NCBI GenBank assembly: GCA_016197005.1
Contig: JACPWO010000001.1
Coordinates: 218,544 to 282,543, forward strand
DNA from: Candidatus Anderseniibacteriota bacterium
GTDB taxonomy: Bacteria > Patescibacteriota > Andersenbacteria > UBA10190
DNA length: 64,000 nt
Direction of reading: 5' to 3'
The notes beneath the pieces are model-generated. The model was not told the origin of the DNA. It saw nothing but the letters and a program-made list of their open reading frames with translations, and did no database searches. Of this stretch, positions 42,919 to 58,588 are shown piece after piece (the stretch's first letter is position 1; every line of letters begins with the position of its first letter). The translations under genes and the position numbers were made by a program.

Positions 42919-42920
42919 GA

Positions 42921-44354
42921 TTGGAGTGTACCGAGCATGGTAAACTATTGTCCATGTCAGTCGCTGCTCGTGCCGTTCATGGAATCAACGTCTGCGTTAT
43001 TCCCTCCCCATATAACGATGATCGTCCGCTCGCTTTGCGGCATCGCTCACTCGCCACAGTCTCCGGGGCGCTTTTGGCAGTAAAGCTCTTGGCCGCCCTA
43101 GCGATAGCTTTTGCTCCCACTCCCGCTGAGCTTTCCGTCATCACCACTAACCGTATTATCCAACTTACTAACGCTGAACGACAAAAAGGTGGCTTATCTG
43201 CTCTTACTACGAATAGCCAACTAACAGCGGCCGCTCAAGAAAAATGCAAACACATGCTTGAGGAAGATTACTTCGCCCACATTTCCCCAAGTGGTGTTAC
43301 CCCGTGGTTTTGGATAAAAAAACATGGATATACCTACCAAGTGGCTGGGGAAAACTTAGCAATTGATTTTACTGAAGCTGAAGACGTGGTAGCTGCCTGG
43401 ATGGCCAGCCCCTCCCACAAAGCGAATATTATGCACAGCGAATATACCGAGACCGGGGTGGCAGTGGTGAGTGGTGAATTTCAAGGAGGCACCTCTATTG
43501 TTGTTGTACATATGTTTGGATTACCAGCTGGCGCAACAGCTCCGTCCTCTACACCCGTCCCTACATCTACACCAGCGACTGCCGGCACTCAACAAAAAAT
43601 ATCCACCCCCACTCCCTCGCCCACCACCACTCCACTTCCTACCACCCCGACAGCAGTACCCCCGAGCCCGTCCGCTGTTCCTCTCCGCACGCCCCGCATT
43701 GCGCTGGCCGGTACCGCGACGGCCGGAGCGACCGTGCTCGTTTCAATTGAAGGCGAAGGTAACAGTGCCATTACTGTTTTAGCGAACGGACAAGCCGCCG
43801 ACACTATTAACTTGCCGCCGACTGGCCAAGCCACAGCTGCAATAAATATCTCTTCTATTCCAGATGGAGCTGTAGTCCTTCGCGCCTATGCCTCAGGCTT
43901 TGGCAGACAAAGCGAACTATCTGAAGGAGTAGCTATAACGAAGGATACGACTGGGCCAGCGCTGGCCTTTGCAGATCTTTCCTTTGTGATTTCTCCGGCC
44001 TTTGATACCGCCCAAGCAGCGGTGAGCCTGCCAAGCGTAAATGGCTCACAAAGCATTCAACTCATCGATATTCGTTCTACAGAAACACTCGAAGCGCGCG
44101 ATGAGCATGGCAACGTTTCCGTTGTAGATACGACGTCGCTTAAGCCCAGCTTCGAAGAAACCGCTCAAAGTGCAGAGCTGCGAGCGCCCCAACGACTGCT
44201 CCAGGTGTCTCGTCACATGTCAGTAGTTGTCCTCATCGTCTTACTTGTCCTGCTATCGATGGCAATAATAATCCGCATTCACGTCCAACACCCTGCTCTT
44301 ATTATGCACGCGTCGCTGGCTATTCTTCTCTCAAGTGTTCTGTTTCTGATCTAA
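42921..44354 (+). CDS. CAP/SCP/PR-1 domain protein with Pro/Thr-rich linker and C-terminal TM anchors
   Basis: CAP domain (NAERQKGGL...HMLEEDYFAH...GENLA); PT-rich linker STPVPTSTPATAGTQQKISTPTPSPTTTPLPTTPT; C-terminal hydrophobic helices. True start possibly at MSVAARAV (42954). Confidence 0.7.
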   Translation: MECTEHGKLLSMSVAARAVHGINVCVIPSPYNDDRPLALRHRSLATVSGALLAVKLLAALAIAFAPTPAELSVITTNRIIQLTNAERQKGGLSALTTNSQLTAAAQEKCKHMLEEDYFAHISPSGVTPWFWIKKHGYTYQVAGENLAIDFTEAEDVVAAWMASPSHKANIMHSEYTETGVAVVSGEFQGGTSIVVVHMFGLPAGATAPSSTPVPTSTPATAGTQQKISTPTPSPTTTPLPTTPTAVPPSPSAVPLRTPRIALAGTATAGATVLVSIEGEGNSAITVLANGQAADTINLPPTGQATAAINISSIPDGAVVLRAYASGFGRQSELSEGVAITKDTTGPALAFADLSFVISPAFDTAQAAVSLPSVNGSQSIQLIDIRSTETLEARDEHGNVSVVDTTSLKPSFEETAQSAELRAPQRLLQVSRHMSVVVLIVLLVLLSMAIIIRIHVQHPALIMHASLAILLSSVLFLI

Positions 44355-44453
44355 TTTTACACCCAAAAGGATTATTGAGATTTTGCCGTTTTAGGTGGTA
44401 AAATCCACGTGTGATGTGGAATATTGGATTTCCAACCGAAGGAGGTGTTAACC

Positions 44454-44630
44454 ATGGCTGACGCACTTATCGTCGCAAGTAAAGTCCGTGCTCACCTCAA
44501 GACTCAAGGTGTGAAGATGTCTGGTGAACTTCCGGACGCACTCAACAAGAAAGTTATGGCCCTTCTTAATGATGCCGCTGCACGCTGCAAGGGTAACAAA
44601 CGTTCTACCGTAAAACCTCAGGACGTATAA
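44454..44630 (+). CDS. small hypothetical protein (58 aa) with strong ribosome-binding site
   Basis: GAAGGAGGTG 7 nt upstream of ATG 44454. Protein MADALIVASKVRAHLKTQGVKMSGELPDALNKKVMALLNDAAARCKGNKRSTVKPQDV. The ORF-track start at 44424 is less likely. Confidence 0.5.
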   Translation: MADALIVASKVRAHLKTQGVKMSGELPDALNKKVMALLNDAAARCKGNKRSTVKPQDV

Positions 44631-44719
44631 TGATAGGGCTAGAATAGCCCGAAAAGCCCCAGGATTGCGATTTCTTGGGGTTTTTCTTATAGTAGAAAAG
44701 CCGTAAAAACCAAATAAAA

Positions 44720-44748
44720 TTGACAAATAAGGCAAATAAGGTTAATAT
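44720..44748 (+). promoter_or_regulatory. near-consensus sigma70-type promoter for the sortase gene
   Basis: TTGACA (44720-44725), 17 nt, TAATAT (44743-44748). The ATG of the sortase gene is at 44763, so the transcript is leaderless or has a very short leader. Confidence 0.6.
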
Positions 44749-44762
44749 TACCCGTTATTTAT

Positions 44763-45449
44763 ATGAAGACCTTCCCTCTCTTTTTAGCCGTTTTTGGCTT
44801 TGCCTCCCTCTTTTTCTTTGGGCTGGGCGTTGTTGCGTTAATGGTCACCCCAGTGGTTGCCAGCTTAACGGTGGGCAAAGAGGCATACCAGCCTCTCCTG
44901 CCAGTTAGCGAGGCTCGCGAGGAAGGTTTCCTGGATGTTAAGGAAAACCCCGGAAAACAGATGTATCCTGCCCTCACGACGGAAGGACAAAGCTTGCCTC
45001 AAACAAACCGTATTGTCATTCCCGCGCTTGATGTCGATGTCCCAATCATTATGAGCCCTTCGTTGGAAGATGTTGATGTTATCGCCACTCTCAATGAAGG
45101 TGCGGCCTTGTATCCCAACGGTGTACTGCCAGGACACTTAGGTAACCTCTTCATCTCTGCTCACAGCACTGGCGAGCCATGGAAGGGTAAATATCGTTTT
45201 GCTTTCCTGCGGATTAATGAGCTACAGCCAGGAAACGTTTTGCATATTGATTACAATGGCACTCGCTACACCTACACCATGACTGATCAGGAGATTGTAA
45301 CTCCAACTCCCGATTACCGCGTGGTATCTGATCGTCCGGTGCCAACACTTTCGCTCATGGCCTGCTGGCCAATTTGGTCAACCCAAAAACGCATGCTTAT
45401 TCACGCTGACCTCACCAACGTCACCAAACTGACACAGCGTCCAGCTTAA
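44763..45449 (+). CDS. sortase-family transpeptidase
   Basis: N-terminal TM; catalytic His (LFISAHS), TLSLMACWP Cys motif and a downstream Arg; 228 aa. Confidence 0.8.
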   Translation: MKTFPLFLAVFGFASLFFFGLGVVALMVTPVVASLTVGKEAYQPLLPVSEAREEGFLDVKENPGKQMYPALTTEGQSLPQTNRIVIPALDVDVPIIMSPSLEDVDVIATLNEGAALYPNGVLPGHLGNLFISAHSTGEPWKGKYRFAFLRINELQPGNVLHIDYNGTRYTYTMTDQEIVTPTPDYRVVSDRPVPTLSLMACWPIWSTQKRMLIHADLTNVTKLTQRPA

Positions 45450-45458
45450 CTCTTTTTG

Positions 45459-46253
45459 TTAACAATTCTGCGCTTTGCGCCAACCGGCCTCCGTTGCCTC
45501 TTTTTCCGTACAAAAATATTTCTCTCCCTGCGCCGCATCTATTTCTGTCCGGCCGTAACTACCACAACCCGGAAGATGATAAATCTTCTGGCCACTACTA
45601 ATATTTCCTTTGATAGTGCAATCTCCGGACGGTAGCGGCAGCGGCGTACTGGTACCAGTTGCCCCACACTGCCCGCTCCAGATCCCCCATTTCATCTGCC
45701 GAGCAAACTCTTCAGCTGTATCTAATTGCACTTGATAGGCGACGTCCGGTGGATATTTAGAAGCCCGCGCAAATCCTTCGCGTACTAACACATCGTTTAT
45801 AAAAACATCATCAACGTAGATATACCGAAGTAATCGACCCAGGCGATCGGTTTCACTTACGTCCTTTTCTAAACGAACGCGCTTTCCCTCAACCAGTGTT
45901 TTATTTTTCTCTGAAGCTTCTTTTCCTAGACACTCAACTGGCGTCCCTACCTGAACTGACTCCGGTGTATCGATGCCGATATACCGCACGCGTCTGCCAC
46001 CTACTAATACGACGGTGTCACCATCAACTACACGCTCGACGACAGCAAATTCATCCTGAGCTCCAGCTACTTTTGTTGGAGCTGGAGTCGGAGTTGGAGT
46101 ACTTACAGGTGTTGCGAGTGGAGTGGGAAGAGATGTAGGAAGAGTTAGCGGTTGTAAAGAATTATCAGTTCGTAAAATAAAGTAGCCGGCAACTATTATA
46201 ACCAGCAGCCACAGACCTTTCTTTAAGAGCGTCGCTTTTTTCGAGACCGCCAT
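45459..46253 (-). CDS. secreted thermonuclease (SNase/micrococcal nuclease-like) with C-terminal Cys-containing KIYHxPGCxxY module
   Basis: Signal/TM; PT-rich linker; SNase core RVVDGDTVVL...RYIGIDTPE...GRLLRYIYVDD; C-terminal CTIKGNISSGQKIYHLPGCGSYGRT...C. Confidence 0.75.
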   Translation of the reverse strand: MAVSKKATLLKKGLWLLVIIVAGYFILRTDNSLQPLTLPTSLPTPLATPVSTPTPTPAPTKVAGAQDEFAVVERVVDGDTVVLVGGRRVRYIGIDTPESVQVGTPVECLGKEASEKNKTLVEGKRVRLEKDVSETDRLGRLLRYIYVDDVFINDVLVREGFARASKYPPDVAYQVQLDTAEEFARQMKWGIWSGQCGATGTSTPLPLPSGDCTIKGNISSGQKIYHLPGCGSYGRTEIDAAQGEKYFCTEKEATEAGWRKAQNC

Positions 46254-47609: not shown

Positions 47610-48992
47610 TTAGAAGAATCGGCGGGCTAAGAACGCTAGGCCGCTTGCTCCTCCAAAAAGGTTAAAGAGAGCGAAAGAAGCAGTTCCACCAGTGCGAGCG
47701 GTTACCGGCACCTGAACAATTTGATTTACAATGTGCCTTTCAATTATTGTCTCAGTCACGCCAGCCACTTCTGGCTCTCGTTCAACAATTGTGGTGTCTT
47801 CATCTTCATCACAAACGTCATGGTCATCAGAACACGCTTCGATAGTGTTGTGAAGATTAGCTCCATTAGGCGCACTGTCTTTTACCGTAGCGGTAATGTG
47901 GTAAGTCTTTGACTCATTTTCATCTAAGTGAATTCCCGTCCAACGAACAGTTTGTCCAGAGATAGAACCACCGCTGCTGACAGATGTAATTGTGAGGTAG
48001 GATGGGACATGATCTTCTATTTCGACGTCATGGAGGTCTACGTCTCCCGTATTCTCGACTTCAATTTCATACGTCAGGCTGTGCCCAGGACGCGTGATAT
48101 CTCGATTGTCCGTCTTAGTTACTCGAATGGCTGGATCGCCTGGTGCTGGGGTAGGTGTAGGAGTTGGCGTGGGTGTAGGGGTTGGCGTCGGAGTTGGTGT
48201 AGGCGTCACAGTTGGCGTTGGAGTCACAGTCGGAGTTGGTGTCACCGTGGGAGTAGGAGTTATGGTTGGCGTTGGTGTAATTGTTGGTGTAGGCGTAGCG
48301 GTTGGAGTAGGCGTCGGAGTTGGCGTGGGTGTAGGGGTTGGCGTTGGAGTAGGAATGCCAGCAAAATTGAGCCAAATGTTAACTGCTGTTGCTCGATTAG
48401 TGGCAAAGGCTTCGTCACTCAAACTAAATGAAGTGGTTGGAGTAAACTTGCGTAACCACTTCCCTACCACCTGCAGGGTTACTTTTGTTTCTCCTGCTTT
48501 GAGACTTGATAGGTTCAGGATGTGACTACCGGTTCGACTAGCGAAACAATACAGCGTGCCATTACAGAACTTCTCGCTATACACATCATCAGTGAGCATG
48601 ATCCAGTTGCTCTGAGCTGTGCCCTCGTAGTTACTGTGGTGCCCACCCATTTGGTCAAAACGACTCAGGACCCGAGCATTGAACACGATGTTATTACATA
48701 CTAAAAAGTCGACTCGGTAACTAAACGGAACGGCTGTTATGTCATATGTACCGGCCGCAGCATTGTGGATTGGAGAATTTACGAAAAGCTGAATAACAGG
48801 TTCATTACTGAGACGTTTTGGCAAATCATCATATCCTGTTGTAAGGCGTGGATTAATAACGGTAATACCATTTGAGCCAGCGCCAGCAGCTTTTTCTAAG
48901 TTGGCAGTAAATAACAATGCACCGAGCACCATCAGGGCACTAGCTAAGAGATACGGAAAGAAACGGAGGTTCTGTTTTACTAGGCTACTCAT
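47610..48992 (-). CDS. surface protein: N-terminal signal peptide, (TP)n linker, DUF11 (conserved repeat) domain, C-terminal sorting-signal-like tail
   Basis: Linker [42 protein letters not shown]... DUF11-like IRVTKT...[29 protein letters not shown]-terminus VPVTARTGG + hydrophobic [17 protein letters not shown] + RRFF. Confidence 0.75.
48115..48375. repeat. hexanucleotide-periodic tandem DNA repeat encoding the (TP)n linker
   Basis: GGTGTAGGAGTTGGCGTGGGTGTAGGGGTTGGCGTCGGAGTTGG... has ACNCCN periodicity on the coding strand. It generates spurious antisense GVGVGV ORFs. Confidence 0.8.
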
Positions 48993-49118: not shown

Positions 49119-50816
49119 TTAGAAGAACTTGCGGAGAACGAAGGCTAGACCGCCAGCGCCACCGAATAGGTTAAGGAGAGCGACCGAAGCCAGACCGCCC
49201 GTTTTGGCCGTAATTGGAACTGGAACGATACCATAACTTGTGCCAGCTACATCTTTGACTACTGTTTGCGTGATAATGTGCTGAACAGTTTTATGAGAAG
49301 TTCCAGCTACCTTGCCCGCGTTATCTACACTGGTCGAATCACTATCTTCATCACAGACATCGAAGTCATCTGAGCAAACTTCTACTCGGTTCGACAACAG
49401 GACTCCGTCAGGAACATTGCTTTTAACAGTGACGGTAATAGTGAATGTCTTGGTGTCGTTTTCTCCGATAGTAATACCGTCCCATGTAACTTTCTGACCA
49501 GCAATTGTGCCACCATCACTAGCTGACTTGATTGTTAAGTAGGATGGTACGTTGTCTTCAATGTGGATGTCGTGAATATCTACGTCACCCGTGTTCTCGA
49601 CTTCAATTTCATAGGTAAATGTATTGCCCGGTTTAACGAGATTCTGACTGGCTGTCTTCGTTACTCGAATATCTGCGTCATCAGGATCGGGAGTTGCCGT
49701 TGGGGTAGGCGTAGGAGTTGGCGTGGGTGTCACGGTGACCGTTGGAGTTGGAGTTACCGTAGCAGTCGGGGTTGGAGTCGGTGTCGGAGTTATAGTCGGC
49801 GTAGCAGTCGGAGTCACCGTAGGCGTCGCTGTGGGTGTAGCTGTCGGGGTAGATGTCGGTGTTGGAGTAACAGTTGCAGTGGGTGTTGGAGTTGCGGTTG
49901 GGGTTGGAGTAGCTGTAGGTGTCGCGGTCGGAGTAACTGTCGGGGTTGCTGTTGGTGTGACAGTAGGAGTCGCCGTTGGCGTAGCTGTTGGCGTAGCTGT
50001 AGGAGTAGCAGTTACAGTCGGCGTGGGAGTCGGGGTATCAGTAGGTGTTGGAGTCGGAGTAGCGGTAGGCGTAGGAGTTGGCGTGGGTGTAGGGGTACCA
50101 GTAGGAGTAACGGTCGGAGTCGTTGTTGGTGTAGTGGTTGGTGTTGCAGTCGGCGTGGCTGTAGGAGTTGGAGTGGCGGTTACCGTCGGAGTTGGGGTTG
50201 GAGTACCTAATACTGACGTGTCATAAAACAAAACATACTCGTCAATCCTTGGTCCAGCCGTCAATACAAAGCTGGCAACATTTGGAGCTGAATCGTAAAT
50301 TGTTACCTCATCTTTTAAAATACGACCGAGTTTCTCTCGTCCGTTATTTGGTCGCTCACTTCGTTCACGGCGAACACCATTTGAGCCACCGGTAAATGTA
50401 GAGCCATCAAGAATGATGAGACCGGCGGCACCAACTTTCCCGCGAGCAACATCACCATCAACTTTAATCTTGATCCAACCAGGGCCACGTTGCAGGGCTA
50501 AGCCGGTTGGATATACTGGTTCGGATTCAACAATAGGTTGGCCGCCAGTCGCGACTGGGAAGGTTTCGTTATCTTGGACAATTTGACCGCTCCCTAATTT
50601 TACAGTTGGCGTCATAACGCTCCGTCGAGTGGAGAGAACGGCACTAAAATCTACTCGAGCGTTAATGACTGGTGTCAAAGCTTCGGCAATATGTGTTTGG
50701 ACAGATACGAACGCAAGAATTCCGACAACAAGAAACGCCCCAGACAAACTGATAAATGGCGTTGAGATTCCAATCTTCTTTGCGAAAATTTTCTTTGACA
50801 GTATTTCCTTAAACAT
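49119..50816 (-). CDS. surface protein paralog: signal/TM, roughly 150-aa (TP)n-type linker, DUF11 domain, C-terminal sorting-signal-like tail
   Basis: Linker [36 protein letters not shown]...; DUF11-like [47 protein letters not shown]; C-terminus [11 protein letters not shown] + [20 protein letters not shown] + RKFF. Confidence 0.75.
49690..50215. repeat. roughly 520-bp hexanucleotide/dodecanucleotide tandem repeat encoding the (TP)n linker of the second paralog
   Basis: GTTGGGGTAGGCGTAGGAGTTGGCGTGGGTGTCACGGTGACCGTTGGAGTTGG... continuous GTNGGN-type periodicity. Confidence 0.8.
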
Positions 50817-50966: not shown

Positions 50967-51398
50967 TTACTGATCCCAGAAGGTCCGGCCGGTTTTGTAA
51001 GATTCTACATATGACGGAACAGTCGGAAAAACTGGTTGGGGCAGATTATCCATGTCATACCAAGCCCAGCCTTCACTTTTGTTTGGCTCCATTAATTTTG
51101 GCTCTCCGCTTTTCCAATCTGCAGCAAAAGCCAAGTCAACATAATGCTTAGGGGCAAACTCCTTTAAGTTGTAGAGCCTAAGAAAACGAATGTTATCTAT
51201 CTCTAAATCTGTCTCTTCTTTTACTTCTCGCCGCACTACATCTTCAAACGATTCCATATATTCCATATGTCCTCCTGGCCACGCATACATGTTTTCTCCG
51301 TGGGATCCCTTTCTTACTCCCAGTAAAACCTTGCCATTTTTAATAATCATGACACCTATACCAACTTTGGGACGATTTTGTTCGGTCTGGTTATTCAT
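50967..51398 (-). CDS. NUDIX hydrolase
   Basis: Nudix box GGHMEYMESFEDVVRREVKEETDL; 143 aa. Confidence 0.8.
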   Translation of the reverse strand: MNNQTEQNRPKVGIGVMIIKNGKVLLGVRKGSHGENMYAWPGGHMEYMESFEDVVRREVKEETDLEIDNIRFLRLYNLKEFAPKHYVDLAFAADWKSGEPKLMEPNKSEGWAWYDMDNLPQPVFPTVPSYVESYKTGRTFWDQ

Positions 51399-51969
51399 GA
51401 GAATACTCTAACAGTTCATCTAGCACTTGAGGTAACTCTGTCACACCATCTCCCTCGGTAAAATGTCCCATGTTATGCATAACGATCACTTTCGCATTCA
51501 GCTTTTGCTCAAACATTTGCTTGTTCTCTTCCACTGCCCCAAAGTCATCATTGTCTGAAATAAAAACTGAAAACTTTTGAGTTGTTTTTAAGATCTTTGA
51601 AAAATCAATGGGTGTTTTCATCCATGGTTCTGCTACTAACTCTGTCTCTTCGTCTTCAAGGTTTTCTAATATAAACCAACCAGCAACAAAAACACATCCA
51701 CCTACCTTTTTGTCTGAATGTTTTTCTAAATATCTCATAATCGTTTGGCAGCCAATGCTATGACCGACAAAATATGTATGCTCATCAAGGTTGCCGACAA
51801 CCGCTTCTAATCGGTCCACCCATTTCTCAATGACAGGTTCATCATCACGAGACATTAGAGGCACATTTACTTCAAATCCTCGCTGCTCCAGTTGCTGCTT
51901 AAGCCATGGAAGCCAGTGTTCGTCCGGCCTCCCGCTCCAGCCGTGAACAATAAAGACTCGATTATTCAT
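51391..51969 (-). CDS. alpha/beta-fold serine hydrolase (YdeN/RBBP9-like esterase family)
   Basis: VFIVHGWSG...GHSIGCQ nucleophile elbow; 192 aa; 8-nt overlap with the downstream NUDIX gene. Confidence 0.6.
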   Translation of the reverse strand: MNNRVFIVHGWSGRPDEHWLPWLKQQLEQRGFEVNVPLMSRDDEPVIEKWVDRLEAVVGNLDEHTYFVGHSIGCQTIMRYLEKHSDKKVGGCVFVAGWFILENLEDEETELVAEPWMKTPIDFSKILKTTQKFSVFISDNDDFGAVEENKQMFEQKLNAKVIVMHNMGHFTEGDGVTELPQVLDELLEYSHE

Positions 51970-52427
51970 GTGGTAACTATATATGATTTTAGGGGAGCGT
52001 CAGCAAAGTACTTTCCACCAAAAAAGTTCTTGATCATTTCGTCGTGGGTTGGAAAGATTGCAGCTGGCAATTTACTGGGTTCAAACCACCCCAACTCGTA
52101 ACATCGATCCGGTTCAAGATTTTCTGGCTCTCCTATAACTTCTTTTGCTAAAAATCCGAGCTGAATATAGTGACCACGGCTCCCGTTCGGAGTGTTAACC
52201 AGTGTTCGAAACTCCAGTTCGGTAGTAGGAGCTATTAGATTCGTTTCCTCCTTAAGTTCTCGAGCTGCTGCATCCGCTATATTTTCTCCTTTCTCTAAGT
52301 GGCCACCAGGGAGAGCCCAGGTACCATCGCCGAATATATTCTTCCTTTTCCCGAATAGAAGCTTGCCCTCACGCATTACGAACACGTTCACGCCAACATA
52401 CATTGTATCGTAGGTATCTGTAGTCAT
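51966..52427 (-). CDS. NUDIX hydrolase
   Basis: Nudix box GGHLEKGENIADAAARELKEETNL; 153 aa; 4-nt overlap with the downstream gene. Confidence 0.8.
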   Translation of the reverse strand: MTTDTYDTMYVGVNVFVMREGKLLFGKRKNIFGDGTWALPGGHLEKGENIADAAARELKEETNLIAPTTELEFRTLVNTPNGSRGHYIQLGFLAKEVIGEPENLEPDRCYELGWFEPSKLPAAIFPTHDEMIKNFFGGKYFADAPLKSYIVTT

Positions 52428-52465
52428 TTATTCTAGTTTATGCTTCCTTTTTTACTCGCTCAAGT

Positions 52466-52885
52466 TTACCTATTTCTTAGATAAAAGAAGTCACTGAATA
52501 TTTTGTCGAGATCTACAAGATCTGTATATTCACTTACCTGGAGACGCGGGTTACCCGCTATCATAGCAGAAAGATGTCGATCGTTTGCCGGTCGGAAAAT
52601 ACATATGATCTTTTTACCTAATGATTCAGCCATAGCAATTTCGTATCCGACGCCAAGACTGGGGCTTGTTACTTCAGCAACGACTGCATCAGACTGGGTT
52701 AGCCAGTTCACATCGCGAGCAAAAATATCCGTATCCTTCCGCGCTGTTTCTGTCTCTACAACTTTTACATTACCTACATGTTCAGTGAGAACAGTTCCGA
52801 ATTTTTCCAATTGTTTAATAATCTCAAAGTAAAGCGCTTGATCCTGCCTACCACCTCTAATTGATCCAGCAAAATATATTTTCAT
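52466..52885 (-). CDS. 2'-deoxynucleoside 5'-phosphate N-hydrolase (DNPH1/Rcl-like, nucleoside 2-deoxyribosyltransferase fold)
   Basis: MKIYFAGSIRGGRQDQALYFEIIKQLEKFGTVLTEHV matches the DNPH1 N-terminal signature YFCGSIRGGR.D...FGTVLTEHV nearly residue for residue. Confidence 0.8.
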   Translation of the reverse strand: MKIYFAGSIRGGRQDQALYFEIIKQLEKFGTVLTEHVGNVKVVETETARKDTDIFARDVNWLTQSDAVVAEVTSPSLGVGYEIAMAESLGKKIICIFRPANDRHLSAMIAGNPRLQVSEYTDLVDLDKIFSDFFYLRNR

Positions 52886-52914
52886 AAATACGGTATATTG
52901 TTTTTACTATATCT

Positions 52915-53520
52915 ATGAACCAAAAACTCGTCATTTTTGATTTCGATGGCGTCATTATCGACTCGTTCAAAACGGTGTTTGATATTACCCGCCTAGAAAG
53001 ACCTACTCTGACTGAACAAGCGTACAGAAAATTATTCGAAGGTAATATTAATGATGTAAAAAATCTCAGTCCTTCATCGCAAAAAATAGATTTCTTTGAT
53101 ATATACAGTAAAAAAGCAGCGTCCCTTTTACTAATTCCTGGGGTTGTCGAACAAATTAAAAAAATTTCTGACTACTACGATCTTACGATTGTATCTTCTA
53201 CTACGACTCCTATTATTGATAATTTCCTAAAACAACATGATCTTAGGGATTACTTTAAAGAAATACTGGGTAACGATGTTGCCTTCAGTAAAGTAACAAA
53301 GTTTAAAATGTTATTTAAACAGTACCAGATCTTAAATACTGATGCAGTCTACATCACAGATACTCTTGGCGACATTCGTGAAGCAACACAGGTAAACCTT
53401 CCCTGCATTGCCGTTACCTGGGGATTCCACGATGAAGACTTATTACGTAGTGGCAGCCCAGCTCGTTTAATAAATAATCCAAAAGAACTTGTACCAAAAG
53501 TTTTTGAAATTTTAGCGTAG
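52915..53520 (+). CDS. HAD-superfamily phosphatase (subfamily IA)
   Basis: LVIFDFDGVIIDS motif I; 201 aa. Confidence 0.75.
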   Translation: MNQKLVIFDFDGVIIDSFKTVFDITRLERPTLTEQAYRKLFEGNINDVKNLSPSSQKIDFFDIYSKKAASLLLIPGVVEQIKKISDYYDLTIVSSTTTPIIDNFLKQHDLRDYFKEILGNDVAFSKVTKFKMLFKQYQILNTDAVYITDTLGDIREATQVNLPCIAVTWGFHDEDLLRSGSPARLINNPKELVPKVFEILA

Positions 53521-53721
53521 CGTTGTTCTTTAGTAGTTACTATTAACGAATTTGACGTTTCTTCTTGCGTACATAAATATATTAAATATATGAATCCTCG
53601 CACAAACATTATTGAAATGCGTAAGCTTGCATACCTGAAACATTGGCTAACACCAGTGCCGGGTTTTTGTGCGTACGGAATATATAAACATTAGATTCTA
53701 GTTACTATTTTCCTTACTCAT

Positions 53722-53748
53722 AAACCCCCGGCAAATGCCGGGGGTTTT
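53722..53748 (+). terminator. rho-independent terminator
   Basis: CCCCCGGC-aaat-GCCGGGGG followed by TTTT. It lies about 200 nt downstream of the HAD gene and may terminate an sRNA. Confidence 0.75.
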
Positions 53749-53792
53749 AATTTCCCCACGTTAGTTCTTTGCAAACAAGAAAGGTGCGAATC

Positions 53793-54023
53793 ATGGCAAC
53801 GTCTAAAAACGACCAGGCAGTTGAACTTTTGATTGAGCAGCTAAAAAGTGATCGTCTCAAAAAGGCAGTCTTTGAGCGACTATTCCCTGGACACGGGGAA
53901 GCCGTTCTCGCCCTGCACGGACGGCACGACTTACTATCACAGATCAAGTACCAGGTAAGTCTTGGCCCACCCCAATCAATCTCACCCTGTAACTGCATTA
54001 ACTGCGGATTTGGAGACGTCTGA
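53793..54023 (+). CDS. small hypothetical protein (76 aa)
   Basis: AAGAAAGGTG RBS before ATG 53793 (MATSKNDQAV...). Overlaps the next small ORF by ATGA; terminator downstream. Confidence 0.35.
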   Translation: MATSKNDQAVELLIEQLKSDRLKKAVFERLFPGHGEAVLALHGRHDLLSQIKYQVSLGPPQSISPCNCINCGFGDV

Positions 54024-54241
54024 TGGAAACAAACCACGATCGCATTGAAAAATTGTATAACACTGTTCAATGGAATCCACGGTGGGGTCAGGAGCCAGTT
54101 TTTACCTGGAGGTCGCTACCTCCACGGTCAGCAAGTTCGAGAATGGATTCGACTGAATCCACCAGTGAGCAATCTGACCGAGGCGGGTTATCATACCCGG
54201 AACGCTTCTCTTCCCAGTCCTCAATTGATCTGATGCATTAG
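54023..54241 (+). CDS. small hypothetical protein (72 aa)
   Basis: ATGA-coupled to the preceding ORF; followed by a terminator at 54255. Confidence 0.3.
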   Translation: METNHDRIEKLYNTVQWNPRWGQEPVFTWRSLPPRSASSRMDSTESTSEQSDRGGLSYPERFSSQSSIDLMH

Positions 54242-54254
54242 CAGTCAGTCATGT

Positions 54255-54286
54255 ACGCACGCTTACACGAAGCGTGCGTTTTTCTT
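54255..54286 (+). terminator. rho-independent terminator
   Basis: ACGCACGCTT-acac-GAAGCGTGCGT followed by TTTTTCTTT. Confidence 0.7.
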
Positions 54287-54312
54287 TACAATTTGTGAGA
54301 ATGCGTAGTTGC

Positions 54313-54741
54313 TTATAACTTTAGTTCAAAAATGTTTGGTGGCTTCGCTTCTAAATCCGAATATCTAATCCAAGTTGGCTTCACTTTAAACCAGCGCTGA
54401 TCGGATCTCTCGGCAAACTTTTTTGAGCGAGGATTTTTCTTAATATGTAAATCTCGGTACCGCTCCATTTCTGAACCTTTAATTTCTATAGCTTCGCCTT
54501 CGTACTGTACTGTAAGAGGTTTTCCAGGATCGTTACCAAGCGTAATTGCAACATGGGGTCTATTGATCAAGTTGCGGTACTTTCGAGACTGATTAGAAGT
54601 ACCAAAAATAAGGTCCAAATTACCTGCCTCTGTTATGGCTACCAATGCAGATTCCGGCTTACTTTGCTCATTCACAGTCGCCACAACTCCTAAAATCTGC
54701 GTCGCGATAAATTTACTAATTAACCTCTTATTGTCTTCCAT
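54313..54741 (-). CDS. pyridoxamine 5'-phosphate oxidase-like FMN-binding split-barrel protein
   Basis: 142 aa; VATVNEQSKPESALVAITEAGNLDLIFGTS...PHVAITLG resembles the PNPOx-like / general stress protein 26 family. Confidence 0.55.
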   Translation of the reverse strand: MEDNKRLISKFIATQILGVVATVNEQSKPESALVAITEAGNLDLIFGTSNQSRKYRNLINRPHVAITLGNDPGKPLTVQYEGEAIEIKGSEMERYRDLHIKKNPRSKKFAERSDQRWFKVKPTWIRYSDLEAKPPNIFELKL

Positions 54742-54742
54742 T

Positions 54743-54769
54743 GCAGGGATACTTAGATCAGCTTAGAAC
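54743..54769 (+). repeat. copy 1 of a conserved 27-nt intergenic motif
   Basis: GCAGGGATACTTAGATCAGCTTAGAAC; 23/27 identical to copy 2. Contains the direct half-repeat TTAGAY-N5-TTAGAAC. Confidence 0.6.
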
Positions 54770-54889
54770 TTTATTATGCCTGATGGGTTATTAACTCCCA
54801 TACCTTGATGGTCTTTAAGTTTATGCTTCGTTTGTATAACTTTGTATATGAGGTAATGGTGCACACTTTGAACTAAGAAAGGAAACGAC

Positions 54890-55114
54890 ATGAGTACTCC
54901 TTATCAAGAACACCCCGACTCTAATGTGAGTCAGGCCCTAACTCGTCTCTGTGATGCGTTGTGCAGTTGGGAACGAGCAACTGGAAGAACTTCGGTACTT
55001 GTTCTTCGTGAGTCTGGGGGTTTTCACTTCCGAGCTGATAGTGGCAAACCTCTGAGCTCAGATAACGATGACATTCCTGACGAACAACTATTTCGGATGC
55101 TCAGTCAGGAATAA
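54890..55114 (+). CDS. small hypothetical protein (74 aa)
   Basis: AAGAAAGGAAACGAC-ATG RBS. Terminator immediately downstream. Confidence 0.4.
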   Translation: MSTPYQEHPDSNVSQALTRLCDALCSWERATGRTSVLVLRESGGFHFRADSGKPLSSDNDDIPDEQLFRMLSQE

Positions 55115-55142
55115 ATCAAGTACTTAATGCAGTCTTTTGTTG

Positions 55143-55176
55143 ACCGCAAGCACACCTGCATCTTGCGGTTTTTTCT
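55143..55176 (+). terminator. rho-independent terminator
   Basis: ACCGCAAG-cacacctgcat-CTTGCGGT followed by TTTTTTCTTT. Confidence 0.7.
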
Positions 55177-55193
55177 TTGCATTAATTTTCTTA

Positions 55194-55220
55194 GCAGGGA
55201 TATTTAGACCAAGTTAGAAC
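55194..55220 (+). repeat. copy 2 of the 27-nt intergenic motif
   Basis: GCAGGGATATTTAGACCAAGTTAGAAC. Confidence 0.6.
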
Positions 55221-55290
55221 CTATTCCTTACGGTGCCTGTTGGATAGATGTAGTGAAAAGACTTGAAAATGATCAACTATTATGGTATAG

Positions 55291-55542
55291 TTGTCTGTGA
55301 TCCACGCTACAAATCCCCAGGAAGATACCAACCTTATCGGAAATTCTACCGAGGTTTTTGTGACGTACTACAATAGAAATATTCCGGATGCCTTTCCTCA
55401 TGCTACTCGCAAGACGCTAAATGTGTTTAAGGCTCAATATCCATCGTTATTCAAGGAAAACGGAGAATGGATTATCGACAAGCACCGAAAAAAGTATATG
55501 GATTGGCTCGCTTCCTACCACGATTCACAAGTCACGCCCTAA
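55291..55542 (+). CDS. doubtful small ORF (TTG start in the ORF track). The region may instead be a transcribed non-coding unit.
   Basis: No ATG start. A good promoter-like element, TTGAAA (55263-55268) / 17 nt / TATAGT (55286-55291), ends at the proposed start codon, which argues against this start. Confidence 0.2.
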   Translation: MSVIHATNPQEDTNLIGNSTEVFVTYYNRNIPDAFPHATRKTLNVFKAQYPSLFKENGEWIIDKHRKKYMDWLASYHDSQVTP

Positions 55543-55569
55543 ATTCTCAGTACGTAGCTTGCCATAAGA

Positions 55570-55596
55570 GCAGAAGTATTTAGACCGAGCTAGACC
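55570..55596 (+). repeat. copy 3 (more diverged) of the 27-nt intergenic motif
   Basis: GCAGAAGTATTTAGACCGAGCTAGACC; 21/27 identical to copy 2. Confidence 0.5.
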
Positions 55597-56205
55597 CTAC
55601 TGAGACTTAATCCAGTTCTTAAATTCAACAAAGTTTTTATACAAAAATCCCCTGCCTCCTTTTTTCTCATATAGCTCAATTACATCAGATTGGTTATCAA
55701 TCATTAGTGATTTTGAAATATTCTTTTCTCCTAGCTTTTCTAAGGCAATATCAAACAATCTTCCGTTCTGTTCCTTTTTAAGAAAACCATAGTCAGCGGA
55801 ATTTACGACTGCATCAAATTTTTGACTAAGGTTGTTATTTTTGACCGTGATTTCGGAAAATACATCCATATTATCGGTAACTAACCCAACTTTAGTGCCT
55901 TGTTTCCTTAGAGTATTTATGAGAGCTAGTAATTGATCATCAAGCTTCATGAGTCTTACGCTTTCCTCAAATGCCTCCTTGAGAATCTCTACATCTATCC
56001 CTGTTCTACTCGCAATATCATCGTTTACTTGATCAGAGGTAACTTCTCCCCGCATCCATCTGCGGACGAGCTCACGGTTACCCTCAAAAACATTCTTTGC
56101 GATCCAGTCAGCAATTTCAGAGTGTTCTGGTTTGAGTGTTGTTGTATAAAAATAGTCAAAACAAAGTACGCCGTCAAAATCAAAAAGAATTGTTTTAAAA
56201 TTCAT
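55597..56205 (-). CDS. HAD-superfamily hydrolase
   Basis: ILFDFDGVLCFD motif I; 202 aa. Confidence 0.7.
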   Translation of the reverse strand: MNFKTILFDFDGVLCFDYFYTTTLKPEHSEIADWIAKNVFEGNRELVRRWMRGEVTSDQVNDDIASRTGIDVEILKEAFEESVRLMKLDDQLLALINTLRKQGTKVGLVTDNMDVFSEITVKNNNLSQKFDAVVNSADYGFLKKEQNGRLFDIALEKLGEKNISKSLMIDNQSDVIELYEKKGGRGFLYKNFVEFKNWIKSQ

Positions 56206-56235
56206 CAGCTCGGATATATAGACCAGTTAAAATTT

Positions 56236-56496
56236 TCAATCAAAAGATATTACTAGAAAGCCATGCTTTTCTACATCGGCCTTTGGCCAAAACTTTACAT
56301 CATTAGTTTTTAGAACATGAGTTACTACTTTCTCAATTTCTCTTCCGGTATAGCTCTTAGTTTTTGGATCCCATTCTTTAAGAAGAAGTAGGTCACCCGG
56401 ACTGCATTCCCAGTCAGCTAACCTTAACTCATATTTTTTCTCACCATCAAAAATTCTTTGGAAATACTCAGGCCAGACTTTTTTCTCTTTTTTCAT
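56236..56496 (-). CDS. ASCH/DUF3850-like small beta-barrel protein
   Basis: 86 aa; EYFQRIFDGEKKYELRLADWECSPGDLLLLKEW resembles ASCH-type PUA-like domains. Confidence 0.45.
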   Translation of the reverse strand: MKKEKKVWPEYFQRIFDGEKKYELRLADWECSPGDLLLLKEWDPKTKSYTGREIEKVVTHVLKTNDVKFWPKADVEKHGFLVISFD

Positions 56497-56752
56497 ATAT
56501 GAAGTATTGCACTAAAGTTACGCCCCACATGATTATGCCAATGGAAAATGAAGCCAACGGTAGCCATGCACGTGTCAAAGTGAAAAATCCGATTGATGAG
56601 GCGTAAAACGCAAGAGCGATGAGGATTGTCATCAAAGGTTGGCCGGATCGTTTTTCCTGGTAGTTCTTTTTGATTTGCGCTGGAATACCGACGAGTACAA
56701 GAGCCAGAGAAAAAATACTCACGAGTAAACTCAGTGTGAATTGAAGATCCAT
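56468..56752 (-). CDS. small hypothetical membrane protein
   Basis: 94 aa, three TM helices. Confidence 0.35.
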   Translation of the reverse strand: MDLQFTLSLLVSIFSLALVLVGIPAQIKKNYQEKRSGQPLMTILIALAFYASSIGFFTLTRAWLPLASFSIGIIMWGVTLVQYFIYEKREKSLA

Positions 56753-56777
56753 GCGGGTCTAGTTTGATCTTTGAACT

Positions 56778-57224
56778 TTAGCTACCGTGATATCCACGAA
56801 ATGCTCGAGCGATGGCCCTATATTGTCCCATATATTTAGCTTGTTTATGACCTTGCATCCAAACACTCCATTCGTCATCTTCGATTTGGGGATCAATCCC
56901 CGCTAAAGCAGTCCAATTACTCCATAAGTTTGCATAGTGAGATGCTTTCTCGGAGTGATCCTCAACGAACTGAACCAACGCTTCCTTTTCGTAACTATCA
57001 AAAAGCTCATCCATTGCACCGGCCGTTAACCTTGACTCATCACCCATTGCCTTGATGCGCTCCCGTATCTCCGAGTGTATTTGCATAACATCCGAGTCAT
57101 CTTCCCAATTTTCTTCTTCGATAATGCGGTTTGCCTCTGTTATCCAACCAGCTTCGTTTGGTTCCTCTGGTGAAAATGAGAATCTTGGAACTTTTTCAAA
57201 ACCCATGTCTTTATATTCATTCAA
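56778..57224 (-). CDS. acidic hypothetical protein
   Basis: 148 aa, Asp/Glu- and Trp-rich; no recognised motif. Confidence 0.4.
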   Translation of the reverse strand: MNEYKDMGFEKVPRFSFSPEEPNEAGWITEANRIIEEENWEDDSDVMQIHSEIRERIKAMGDESRLTAGAMDELFDSYEKEALVQFVEDHSEKASHYANLWSNWTALAGIDPQIEDDEWSVWMQGHKQAKYMGQYRAIARAFRGYHGS

Positions 57225-57287
57225 CTTTTTATTTCCAGCAAGTCCAGATGAGAAGAGCTGAGCTTAAACACATTCTGACTATTTCTT

Positions 57288-57363
<76 letters not shown>

Positions 57364-57374
57364 AATATTGTTTT

Positions 57375-58037
57375 TTAAGTTTCCTCTATTGTGAACTTTC
57401 TTGCAAGAAGCTTGTAAAAACTTTCTATTTCTTTGTATAAACGTACATCATAGTATCTAACGGAGATGCAACCCGGATAGCCTTCTTTCTTATTTTTACC
57501 AGAATTTTTCTTCCGATATACATAAAATTTTTCTGAAGGAATTTTGGTTAACTTTGACCAAAATTTAATTTGCTTTTCTTGATTATGATAAGAATGAAGA
57601 TGCAGCTGTGCACGAAATTTATTTTCTTTTATCACAAAGCAGGCACGTAGAAGAGATAAAAAGAGCGCAATCATTTCTGGGTCAGAATTCATAAATGCTA
57701 CTGATCCACGCCCCTTCTCTCCTTCCGACCAATACAGAGCAGAACATATTAGCTTTCCAAGGGGCATGCTTATTGTGAGGTTACTAAAGTCCCTTTCTGC
57801 TTTCTGGTGAATTACCTTGTCTCTATTCCACTTTTTTTCTAGTACCATTTTCCTTCCTCGCTGATTACCTATTTCTTTTCTTTTTTCAATTCTTCTTTTT
57901 GCTTTCTCTCCCAGGACTACATTCCCTAACCACACAGAGCAGGTGCTTTTAGAGATTCCAAGCATCTTGCTTATCTCTGGATATGTTCTTCCAAGCTTTC
58001 TTAAGGAAATTGCTTTTGCCTTTAATGCGGCTTTCAT
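57375..58037 (-). CDS. free-standing LAGLIDADG-family homing-endonuclease-like protein with N-terminal HTH
   Basis: N-terminal HTH (ISLRKLGRTYPEISKMLGISKSTCSVWL); single degenerate LAGLIDADG block ICSALYWSEGEKGRGSVAF followed by the typical amphipathic helices (EMIALFLSLLRACF). Lys-rich; 220 aa. Ends 11 nt from tRNA-Trp. Confidence 0.55.
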   Translation of the reverse strand: MKAALKAKAISLRKLGRTYPEISKMLGISKSTCSVWLGNVVLGEKAKRRIEKRKEIGNQRGRKMVLEKKWNRDKVIHQKAERDFSNLTISMPLGKLICSALYWSEGEKGRGSVAFMNSDPEMIALFLSLLRACFVIKENKFRAQLHLHSYHNQEKQIKFWSKLTKIPSEKFYVYRKKNSGKNKKEGYPGCISVRYYDVRLYKEIESFYKLLARKFTIEET

Positions 58038-58091
58038 AAACCAATGAAGGAGGTTATATAACCTCCTTCATTGTATCATGTTTAGCTTAAT

Positions 58092-58256
58092 TTATTTCTT
58101 AGCCTTTTCTTTGTGAGTCGTATGAGCTCGGCACTTCTTGCAAAACTTTTCCAGTTCTAGCTTATGACTATCAGCCCGACGGAGGTTCCGTCGAGTGTGG
58201 TAATTAAACATTTTGCACGTAGTGCACTGGAGACGAATAACGTTATCTTGAGACAT
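58092..58256 (-). CDS. rpmG: 50S ribosomal protein bL33
   Basis: Hand translation: MSQDNVIRLQCTTCKMFNYHTRRNLRRADSHKLELEKFCKKCRAHTTHKEKAKK, with the CxxC...CxxC zinc ribbon typical of bL33. Below the ORF-track size cutoff. Confidence 0.8.
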   Translation of the reverse strand: MSQDNVIRLQCTTCKMFNYHTRRNLRRADSHKLELEKFCKKCRAHTTHKEKAKK

Positions 58257-58258
58257 AG

Positions 58259-58588
58259 TTATGATTTTTTCTTATCTAATCTATCTAAGCCGATAATTTT
58301 GACACCATAATAGACTACGAGCGCAATTACAAGGAAGTCTACGAAAACTGCCATAAAACTGCCCCATTTGACCTCAACTGCACCCAACGTCCATTTCATC
58401 GCCGCGAGCGTTTCTCCCCGCCCAATAACGATGCCAATGAGAGGATTTATGACGTCTTGGACGAGAGAAGATACTACTTTTGAGACAGCACCACCTAAAA
58501 TAAAACCAACGGCCAGACCAACTACTCCCTGCTGGCGGACAAATTCTAAGAACCCCTGAAACTGATTTTTAATAATAGTGGCAGACAT
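58259..58588 (-). CDS. mscL: large-conductance mechanosensitive channel MscL
   Basis: FLEFVRQQGVVGLAVGFILGGAVSKVVSSLVQDVINPLIG matches the MscL TM1 region; 109 aa. Confidence 0.85.
   Translation of the reverse strand: MSATIIKNQFQGFLEFVRQQGVVGLAVGFILGGAVSKVVSSLVQDVINPLIGIVIGRGETLAAMKWTLGAVEVKWGSFMAVFVDFLVIALVVYYGVKIIGLDRLDKKKS

Follow-up and report, generated by a model that had tools for sequence, protein, structure and literature searches.

A cluster of five small genes in Candidatus Andersenbacteria, lying within a 64,000-nucleotide stretch of DNA (the window), is read here, with a probability of about one half, as a lineage-specific grouping of small house-cleaning hydrolases, not a conserved dedicated system, through which runs a Nudix-then-DNPH1 thread. 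A succession of this kind is plausible: the paralogous NudixA and NudixB, both of the MutT/NUDT15/AtNUDX1 clade, would convert (non-canonical) dNTPs to dNMP and PPi, and the DNPH1 orthologue would then break the N-glycosidic bond of the dNMP by way of a covalent Glu82-deoxyribose-5-phosphate intermediate, in a reaction for which Asp58 would supply the acid and Glu35 would activate water. Since the products released would be free base and 2-deoxyribose 5-phosphate, a damaged or modified nucleotide would thereby be barred from re-phosphorylation and from incorporation into DNA. The remaining two proteins, a YdeN-type hydrolase and a HAD phosphatase, may conceivably have a part in this as well.

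All five genes are real, and four of them occupy the minus strand. The DNPH1/Rcl orthologue (52466-52885, 139 amino acids; PF05014), a predicted 2'-deoxynucleoside 5'-monophosphate N-glycosidase, is followed downstream by NudixB (51966-52427, 153 amino acids; PF00293), a Nudix hydrolase of the MutT/NUDT15/AtNUDX1 clade, by a YdeN/RBBP9-family serine hydrolase (51391-51969, 192 amino acids; PF06821) and by a second Nudix hydrolase, NudixA (50967-51398, 143 amino acids; PF00293). The earlier note on this DNA had all four coupled translationally by overlaps of 4-8 nt. The NudixB stop and YdeN start do overlap by 4 nt (ATGA), and the YdeN stop and NudixA start by 8 nt (ATGAATAA), but a 38-nt spacer separates DNPH1 from NudixB, so that the coupling covers three genes, not four. 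Short overlaps between genes are frequent in compact genomes and are no proof of a common pathway. The fifth gene, encoding the HAD-IA phosphatase (52915-53520, plus strand, 201 amino acids; PF13419), is divergent from DNPH1, as had been claimed, the start codons of the pair lying just 29 nt apart; it is a putative member of the cluster. Scans for promoter- and terminator-like matches yield no more hits here than in shuffled sequence, which makes the transcription units presumptive, and an Rfam search of the 790-nt gap beyond the HAD gene (53521-54312) gave only sub-threshold matches, stacked on a likely terminator hairpin.

The DNPH1-like protein is the best characterised member of the set by homology. 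It matches PF05014 at 4.5e-15 in a Pfam profile search, rat Rcl (2khz) at E=2e-36, with 53% identity to the rat Rcl fragment, and human DNPH1 at E=1.5e-33, so that the family assignment made earlier stands. Y4, I9, R10, E35, H36, I54, D58, S76, E82 and S106 are invariant in 25 homologues and rat Rcl; their human equivalents are, in order, Y24, I29, R30, E55, H56, I76, D80, S98, E104 and S128, residues whose roles in the human enzyme have been described (PMC10603095). All nine of the human residues described there as catalytic or substrate-binding are kept, and invariantly so. The catalytic triad Tyr24/Asp80/Glu104 corresponds to Y4/D58/E82, invariant in all 26 sequences; the 5'-phosphate pocket, formed in the human protein by Ser98 together with Ser128' from a helical extension of the partner subunit (PMC10603095), corresponds to S76 and S106 (in an LSAMI motif), both likewise invariant; and the Glu55-His56 helical element, which serves in water activation and in contact with the base O2 (PMC10603095), corresponds, with Arg30, to E35, H36 and R10. 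The catalytic Glu and Tyr on which membership of the family turns are thus present in an intact active site. In the human enzyme R30 forms a salt bridge with D73; the window protein has D51 at the aligned position, which is not invariant among the bacterial family.

Compared with mammalian DNPH1/Rcl (PDB 2khz, 4fyh, 8os9), the window protein shares length and fold family, the triad, the Glu that activates water, the His and Arg that bind the base, and the two phosphate-binding Ser; it differs in having a prokaryotic host and in being known here from sequence. It is a true orthologue of human DNPH1. The MilB and BlsM CMP and hydroxymethyl-CMP N-glycosidases of antibiotic biosynthesis, also PF05014 proteins, share its fold and the Glu-nucleophile chemistry on nucleoside 5'-monophosphates. 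MilB, however, has Phe at the DNPH1 Tyr position, which admits ribose, and Glu at the DNPH1 His position, which binds cytosine, whereas the corresponding residues of the window protein are Tyr4 and His36; by the Tyr/His versus Phe/Glu rule that separates the two groups (PMC10603095), it is of the DNPH1 type and not the MilB type. At least 588 prokaryotic species have a DNPH1 orthologue approximately 50-60% identical to it.

The two Nudix proteins, 35% identical to one another, are assigned less narrowly. Both pass the Pfam PF00293 cut-off (2e-21 for NudixB, 4.7e-17 for NudixA), and both contain the Nudix box G.{5}E.{7}[RK]E.{2}EE with its catalytic Glu residues, in agreement with the identification of two such enzymes in the earlier note; where the EExGU portion of the box calls for Gly, NudixA has Asp and NudixB has Asn. 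The best matches of both are pyrophosphohydrolases of the AtNUDX1/NUDT15/MTH1 type, with which they have the catalytic box in common: NudixA matches AtNUDT1 at E=5e-29, Rickettsia 4kyx at 6.5e-27 and NUDT15 at 6e-19, and the closest solved structures to NudixB are a geranyl-diphosphate phosphohydrolase (6ypb, 1.1e-19), AtNUDT1 (5e-19) and NUDT15 (7e-10). Matches of either protein to NCBIfam equivalogs all fall far under the cut-offs; in particular, the MutT/8-oxo-dGTP diphosphatase models TIGR00586 and NF008044 are not reached (27-32 bits, where 97.9 and 148 are required). The assignment is accordingly to the superfamily only, a level at which dNTPase activity would still be allowed. To judge from its 901 homologues with E<=1e-20, the best 120 of which are 64-80% identical, NudixA is highly conserved in Patescibacteria. 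Two points tell against the dNTP step: Nudix sequences do not disclose substrate specificity, and enzymes of the AtNUDX1 clade also use isoprenoid diphosphates (compare the best NudixB match, 6ypb).

The YdeN-like protein matches PF06821 at 2e-28 (99.9 bits), B. subtilis YdeN (1uxo) at E=3e-26 and RBBP9 at E=5e-7. Across 23 YdeN homologues neither S71, the serine of GHSxG, nor H169 varies, and residue 141 is always D or E, so that nucleophile, acid and His positions are all present, as expected of the serine hydrolase that had been proposed. The PF06821 fold and the positions of the Ser-Asp/Glu-His triad are common to this protein, B. subtilis YdeN, ML-005 and human RBBP9. The characterised members of the family are a short-chain esterase (ML-005) and an aromatic aminopeptidase (RBBP9), chemistry that is unrelated to nucleotides and has no known link with them. 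Three longer YdeN homologues (311-331 amino acids) were considered as Rosetta-stone fusions and set aside; their N-terminal extension is an unrelated helical domain, neither Nudix nor DNPH1. The HAD protein matches PF13419 (HAD_2) at 9.6e-20 (71.9 bits) and has motif I, DxDx(T/V), as FDFDGV at residues 8-13, which bears out its assignment as a HAD-IA phosphatase; against the TIGR01549 HAD-IA profile it scores 23.1 bits, just under the 23.3-bit cut-off. It reaches no NCBIfam equivalog cut-off, and in the PDB it matches only two uncharacterised HAD structures, at ~5e-9, with no close characterised relative. A HAD orthologue adjoins DNPH1 in none of 80 DNPH1-centred loci.

The earlier note saw in these genes a dedicated pipeline of four or five genes, and it is this claim that fails. 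The DNPH1-Nudix-YdeN-Nudix quartet is found in none of 80 loci centred on DNPH1 (from 80 species), 80 metagenome loci centred on YdeN, 5 centred on NudixA and 4 syntenic relatives, 169 comparison loci altogether, with at least 1.5 kb of flank on both sides in 60 of the 80 DNPH1 loci and 28 of the 80 YdeN loci. Relatives do without the arrangement, which points to everyday housekeeping enzymes grouped locally and not to a dedicated system. At this site, relatives with the NTP_transferase-CAP-sortase anchor carry other house-cleaning genes, namely Maf, a YfbR-like HD protein, Nudix, HAD and PNPOx, which favours the house-cleaning reading. The absence of the quartet and the fact that the four syntenic relatives have other combinations of genes in the corresponding place, together with the want of any nucleotide link for the YdeN-type and HAD proteins and the character of the 51-58.5 kb interval, where small accessory genes follow one another at a GC content of 0.35-0.43 against 0.46 for the whole window, also suit another account, in which five unrelated small housekeeping hydrolases have been packed at a variable site of a compact genome with no flow of metabolites between them. 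That account is possible, if on balance doubtful: same-strand Nudix-DNPH1 and Nudix-YdeN pairs are commoner than the background density of Nudix genes in the same loci suggests (Nudix and YdeN are paired in 10 of the 80 YdeN-centred loci), the YdeN-NudixA coupling is kept, with a 4-nt overlap, in one comparison locus (L169), and DNPH1, NudixA and tmk are tightly packed in another (L028).

The grouping of house-cleaning hydrolases with a Nudix-then-DNPH1 thread draws its comparative support from loci of the latter kind. Of 27 DNPH1 loci in Patescibacteria, 9 have a Nudix gene near DNPH1, in every case on its strand and no more than 3.3 kb away. In L028 the NudixA orthologue (2e-57) directly follows DNPH1, gaps of 1 and 4 nt separate the three packed genes, and shmt, CYTH, four Nudix genes, two P-loop kinases and dut surround them in one cluster. 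Against the thread, the specific pairing with NudixA is rare, its orthologue being beside DNPH1 in only 2 of the 80 DNPH1 loci and DNPH1 being present in none of the five NudixA-centred loci.

More general partners of DNPH1 are the thymidylate genes (dut, tmk, thyA/thyX, dcd, glyA), which flank it in 13 of 80 loci, the figure for control loci being 1 of 80 (Fisher p=0.001; exposure-adjusted p=0.02; the counts ignore genome relatedness); one locus (L166) has the order thyX-DNPH1-tmk, plus dcd. A further point against the thread is that the window itself contains none of dut, tmk or the thy genes. The genomic partners of DNPH1 are Nudix genes in this cluster; in other bacteria they are thymidylate genes. 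Clusters of thymidylate, dUTPase and Nudix genes around DNPH1 recur in Patescibacteria and Bdellovibrionales, and no published bacterial DNPH1 gene neighbourhood was found in the literature searched. Because the orthologue elsewhere sits beside dut, tmk, thyA, thyX, dcd and glyA, and because the window protein keeps the His that binds uracil O2 and the Tyr that is specific for deoxy substrates, its likeliest substrates would be deoxyuridine-type nucleotides, dUMP or a 5-substituted dUMP such as hmdUMP. The window cluster is in itself of little weight, since every gene belongs to a known family and is annotated already in the public record; the comparative by-product is that these neighbourhoods lend independent genomic support to a sanitising role of DNPH1 toward pyrimidine deoxynucleotides. 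Cancer drug development currently has DNPH1 among its targets, and its bacterial orthologues are tractable for biochemistry.

The same neighbourhoods can be given another construction, suggested by the phage protein DmtZ, an NDT-like dAMP hydrolase and deoxyribose-5-phosphate transferase (PMC12884076). DmtZ has a DNPH1-like fold, acts on dNMPs and is encoded next to a dUTPase-like gene (PMC12884076). By analogy, the Patescibacteria DNPH1 orthologue might act as a deoxyribose-5-phosphate transferase, exchanging one base for another on dNMPs that the cell has scavenged, as DmtZ does between dAMP and the Z base, in which case DNPH1, the adjacent Nudix and the thymidylate genes may rebalance or repair the deoxynucleotides of a cell whose own biosynthesis is minimal, and thyX/thyA-tmk-dut-Nudix clusters with DNPH1 would mark a previously unrecognised salvage route. 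We regard this as a long shot. DmtZ is dAMP-selective and belongs to Z-genome biosynthesis, and tblastn finds no phage record similar to the window protein.

CPR bacteria live by scavenging, a way of life that would also suit feeding instead of sanitation: DNPH1 would yield 2-deoxyribose 5-phosphate from scavenged DNA-derived dNMPs for carbon and energy (via a deoxyribose-phosphate aldolase encoded at some other locus) and free the bases for salvage. A secreted-type SNase nuclease is encoded 5 kb off, at 45459-46253, and deoxyribose 5-phosphate is what DNPH1 chemistry gives (PMC10603095). Such a role is nevertheless improbable, as mammalian DNPH1 turns over canonical dNMPs slowly (PMC10483697), the conserved partners of DNPH1 are genes of dTMP synthesis and not deoC, deoA or deoB, and no aldolase gene appears among the annotated part of the window.

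An anti-phage nucleotide-depletion module, which had been offered as an alternative, we consider scarcely credible. Screening the five proteins and nine neighbours against PADLOC-DB v2 yields only weak, fold-level matches among the five, to ThsB TIR-like (4.4e-5 over 54 residues of DNPH1) and to the candidate PDC-S07 (2e-9 and 3e-11 on the Nudix domains), and no significant match to a defence model; YdeN, HAD and eight of the nine neighbours match no defence family. Neither a sensor nor a regulator is encoded, the neighbourhood consists of syntenic housekeeping genes, and DNPH1 and NudixA are widespread, single-copy-like families. A phage origin, or an enzyme of phage type, was likewise rejected, since a tblastn search with DNPH1 (E<=1e-3) of 50,697 phage records returned no homologue. 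The ninth neighbour, the SNase nuclease, matches the PADLOC candidate model C3a212 (SNc+LTD) at 1.1e-28, which is read as shared SNase-domain homology.

Five open reading frames are present where the earlier note placed them. On the minus strand lie genes for a Nudix hydrolase (NudixA, 50967-51398), a YdeN-type serine hydrolase (51391-51969), a second Nudix hydrolase (NudixB, 51966-52427) and a DNPH1-like protein (52466-52885); a HAD phosphatase gene (52915-53520) diverges from them on the plus strand, with 29 nt between its start codon and that of DNPH1. All five proteins score well over Pfam gathering thresholds, which bears out the family assignments; all belong unmistakably to known families. 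The public MAG Candidatus Andersenbacteria GCA_016178385.1 encodes identical proteins, and its annotation (nucleoside 2-deoxyribosyltransferase, NUDIX domain-containing protein, serine hydrolase family protein) already describes them correctly at family level. The description of the minus-strand genes as four translationally coupled genes needs amending: NudixB overlaps YdeN by 4 nt (ATGA) and YdeN overlaps NudixA by 8 nt (ATGAATAA), but 38 nt separate DNPH1 from NudixB, making this a set of three coupled genes with one upstream gene. Promoter and terminator consensus matches around the cluster are no commoner than in shuffled sequence, so that a single transcript is only presumed. Downstream of the HAD gene, a gap of ~790 nt (53521-54312) in this compact genome has no Pfam-recognisable gene, and the public record has one 76-aa ORF there; the several sub-threshold Rfam leader/sRNA models that stack at 53700-53750 most likely reflect a terminator-like hairpin.

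The DNPH1-like protein matches rat Rcl at E=2e-36 (53% identity to the rat fragment) and human DNPH1 at E=1.5e-33. In the human enzyme Y24, D80 and E104 form the catalytic triad, with a covalent deoxyribose-phosphate ester on E104; for step two, E55 activates a water molecule; H56 contacts O2 of the base, R30 recognizes the base, which is sandwiched between I29 and I76, and S98 binds the phosphate together with S128' of the partner subunit (PMC10603095). The aligned window residues (Y4, D58, E82, E35, H36, R10, I9, I54, S76 and S106) do not vary among 25 aligned prokaryotic homologues and rat Rcl; the catalytic residues are thus kept, as the earlier note's reading demands. Unlike MilB, the ribonucleotide- and cytosine-specific relative with Phe in place of the DNPH1 Tyr and Glu in place of its His (PMC10603095), the window protein carries the DNPH1-type Tyr and His. 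All sequence criteria agree in making it a DNPH1 orthologue. It belongs to a large family with a wide taxonomic spread: 7,761 database proteins match at E<=1e-5, and a member is encoded in at least 588 species genomes, from Patescibacteria, Bacteroidota, Bdellovibrionales, Chloroflexota, Acidobacteriota and archaea.

What accompanies DNPH1 elsewhere is informative about its role. Clustering of the neighbours in 80 DNPH1-centred loci from 80 species (in 60 of them each flank extends 1.5 kb or more), with groups confirmed by Pfam, yields dUTPase (11), thymidylate kinase (9), SHMT (7), ThyA (5), ThyX (3) and dCTP deaminase (3). These thymidylate-type genes span 13 of the 80 loci, 11 of the 27 labelled Patescibacteria and two Bdellovibrionales, against one of 80 YdeN-centred control loci (Fisher p=0.001; exposure-adjusted p=0.02; genome relatedness is uncorrected). 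Locus L166 reads thyX-DNPH1-tmk, with dcd alongside. The long, tightly packed nucleotide-metabolism cluster L028 (Candidatus Paceibacterota JANOFO010000003.1, 1-11275) runs shmt-CYTH-...-Nudix-Nudix-P-loop kinase-DNPH1-NudixA orthologue-tmk-x-Nudix-P-loop kinase-dut-argS, and dcd and thyX diverge from this run; the NudixA orthologue of the cluster, which adjoins DNPH1, matches at 2e-57. Clusters of a similar kind (thyA/X-shmt-tmk-DNPH1-dut) are found in L005, L016, L025, L029, L071 (NudixA orthologue 0.7 kb from DNPH1, 3e-52) and L073, and seven of the nine Nudix-holding DNPH1 loci are also thymidylate-cluster loci. The window itself contains no dut, tmk or thy gene. A very different, mobile-element-rich setting is seen in L164 and L165, where a DNPH1 homologue (P0013, 64% identical) sits amid PIN-domain toxin-antitoxin-like genes and a Y1 transposase. 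A literature search found no description of prokaryotic DNPH1 in thymidylate/dUTPase/Nudix clusters, though one may already have been published. Widespread prokaryotic orthologues repeatedly embedded in such clusters are relevant to work on DNPH1 or on CPR metabolism.

The best-supported reading, to which we assign a probability of about 0.5, is a two-step route of pool sanitation. A Nudix enzyme would turn a non-canonical dNTP into dNMP and PPi, and DNPH1 would then strip the base through a Glu82 covalent intermediate, releasing free base and deoxyribose 5-phosphate, in parallel with the human pathway, whose last step is the cleavage of hmdUMP by DNPH1. Deoxyuridine-type nucleotides are the most likely substrates because of the neighbourhood evidence, the conserved uracil-contacting His and the deoxy-specific Tyr. 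Gene identities and neighbourhood statistics are direct observations; which substrates are used, and that the two steps are coupled, we infer. The two Nudix proteins are paralogues (35% identity) with intact catalytic Nudix boxes, and their closest solved relatives are AtNUDT1, rose geranyl-diphosphate phosphohydrolase, a Rickettsia MutT-like enzyme, NUDT15 and MTH1. Both fall far under every NCBIfam equivalog cut-off, so sequence does not fix their substrate; the NudixA family is very conserved in Patescibacteria (64-80% identity among the top 120 matches). That DNPH1 orthologues may act instead as deoxyribose-5-phosphate transferases, by analogy with phage DmtZ (PMC12884076), is very unlikely. 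Feeding of deoxyribose 5-phosphate from scavenged DNA into carbon metabolism is an improbable purpose of the cluster. In its favour, a SNase-family protein is encoded 5 kb away (45459-46253, minus strand; PF00565, 1.9e-21; conserved in L162 at 5e-90), plausibly an extracellular DNA/RNA-scavenging nuclease; against it, the partners of DNPH1 elsewhere are of the thymidylate type, and mammalian DNPH1 is reported to be slow on canonical dNMPs (PMC10483697).

Neither the YdeN-type hydrolase nor the HAD phosphatase has an assignable place in the sanitizing route. The hydrolase resembles B. subtilis YdeN (E=3e-26), with its Ser-acid-His positions conserved, and neither of the chemistries of characterized family members, the short-chain esterase ML-005 (PMC6119806) and the aromatic aminopeptidase RBBP9 (PMC8866121), points to nucleotides; the HAD protein has just two distant, uncharacterized structural relatives. 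Three YdeN homologues (P0163, P0178 and P0180; 311-331 aa) have an added N-terminal helical domain of ~135 aa with no recorded Pfam match. A DUF3850/ASCH-domain protein of 86 aa is encoded 4 kb from the cluster (56236-56496, minus strand); in L122 and L123 its orthologues sit immediately beside YdeN homologues, and in L120 ~1 kb downstream.

The earlier note saw in NudixA, YdeN, NudixB and DNPH1 a dedicated pipeline that should be co-conserved. A three-way search centred on DNPH1, YdeN and NudixA and the syntenic relatives speak against it. The quartet is found in none of the 80 DNPH1-centred loci (L012 has a YdeN orthologue and a Nudix gene 2-3 kb upstream of DNPH1), and DNPH1 is found in none of 80 YdeN-centred metagenome loci and none of five NudixA-centred ones. 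Same-strand Nudix-box ORFs occur in ten of the YdeN-centred loci, adjacent or within 0.5 kb in eight, and among the NudixA-centred loci L169 retains YdeN-NudixA with a 4-nt overlap; other genes near NudixA in these five loci are Maf, a YfbR-like HD protein, an NT5C-like protein, a DUF1653-Nudix fusion, PNP/UDP phosphorylase and HAD. The window flank (NTP_transferase, CAP, sortase and SNase; 41851-46253) is syntenic with L162, L163, L169 and L171, and beside it the small-hydrolase set (Nudix, YdeN, HD, Maf, HAD, PNPOx, DNPH1) varies per contig: YdeN-HAD in L162, PNPOx-YdeN-HD-x-x-Nudix in L163, HD-...-YdeN-NudixA-(DUF1653-Nudix) in L169 and Maf-NudixA-(DUF1653-Nudix) in L171. The chromosomal position is therefore fixed, but the 'house-cleaning' genes that occupy it vary. 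The window gene order is unique among the loci examined, and for want of a conserved counterpart the cluster does not define a new system. That housekeeping genes with no bearing on one another were packed together by chance at a variable site is a tenable, if doubtful, alternative: it is favoured by the unconserved quartet and by the different genes that relatives carry here, whereas the recurrent same-strand pairs tell against it. What persists is a habitual grouping of small house-cleaning hydrolases, with recurrent Nudix-DNPH1 and Nudix-YdeN pairs.

The same syntenic housekeeping setting tells against anti-phage nucleotide depletion, which the earlier note had raised as an alternative and which is extremely improbable. 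PADLOC returns, for the five proteins, only a 54-residue TIR-like fold match (DNPH1) and generic Nudix matches to a candidate family; eight of the nine neighbours give no match, and the ninth, the SNase nuclease, matches a candidate model through its SNase domain. A tblastn search of 50,697 phage records (E<=1e-3) finds no DNPH1 homologue.

From 51000 to 58500 GC is 0.35-0.43 (window mean, 0.46), in a series of small accessory genes (Nudix, YdeN, DNPH1, two HAD, PNPOx-like, DUF3850/ASCH and small ORFs of no known family) that ends near tRNA-Trp (57288-57363). On the low-coordinate side of the cluster, two Pro/Thr-repeat DUF11 surface proteins (47610-48992 and 49119-50816, minus strand) end in P[VI]TA[RK]TGG, a hydrophobic helix and an RRFF/RKFF tail, which looks like a variant sortase sorting signal; a sortase gene (44763-45449, plus strand) lies 2-4 kb from them, and the public NCBI contig breaks at the DUF11 repeats.
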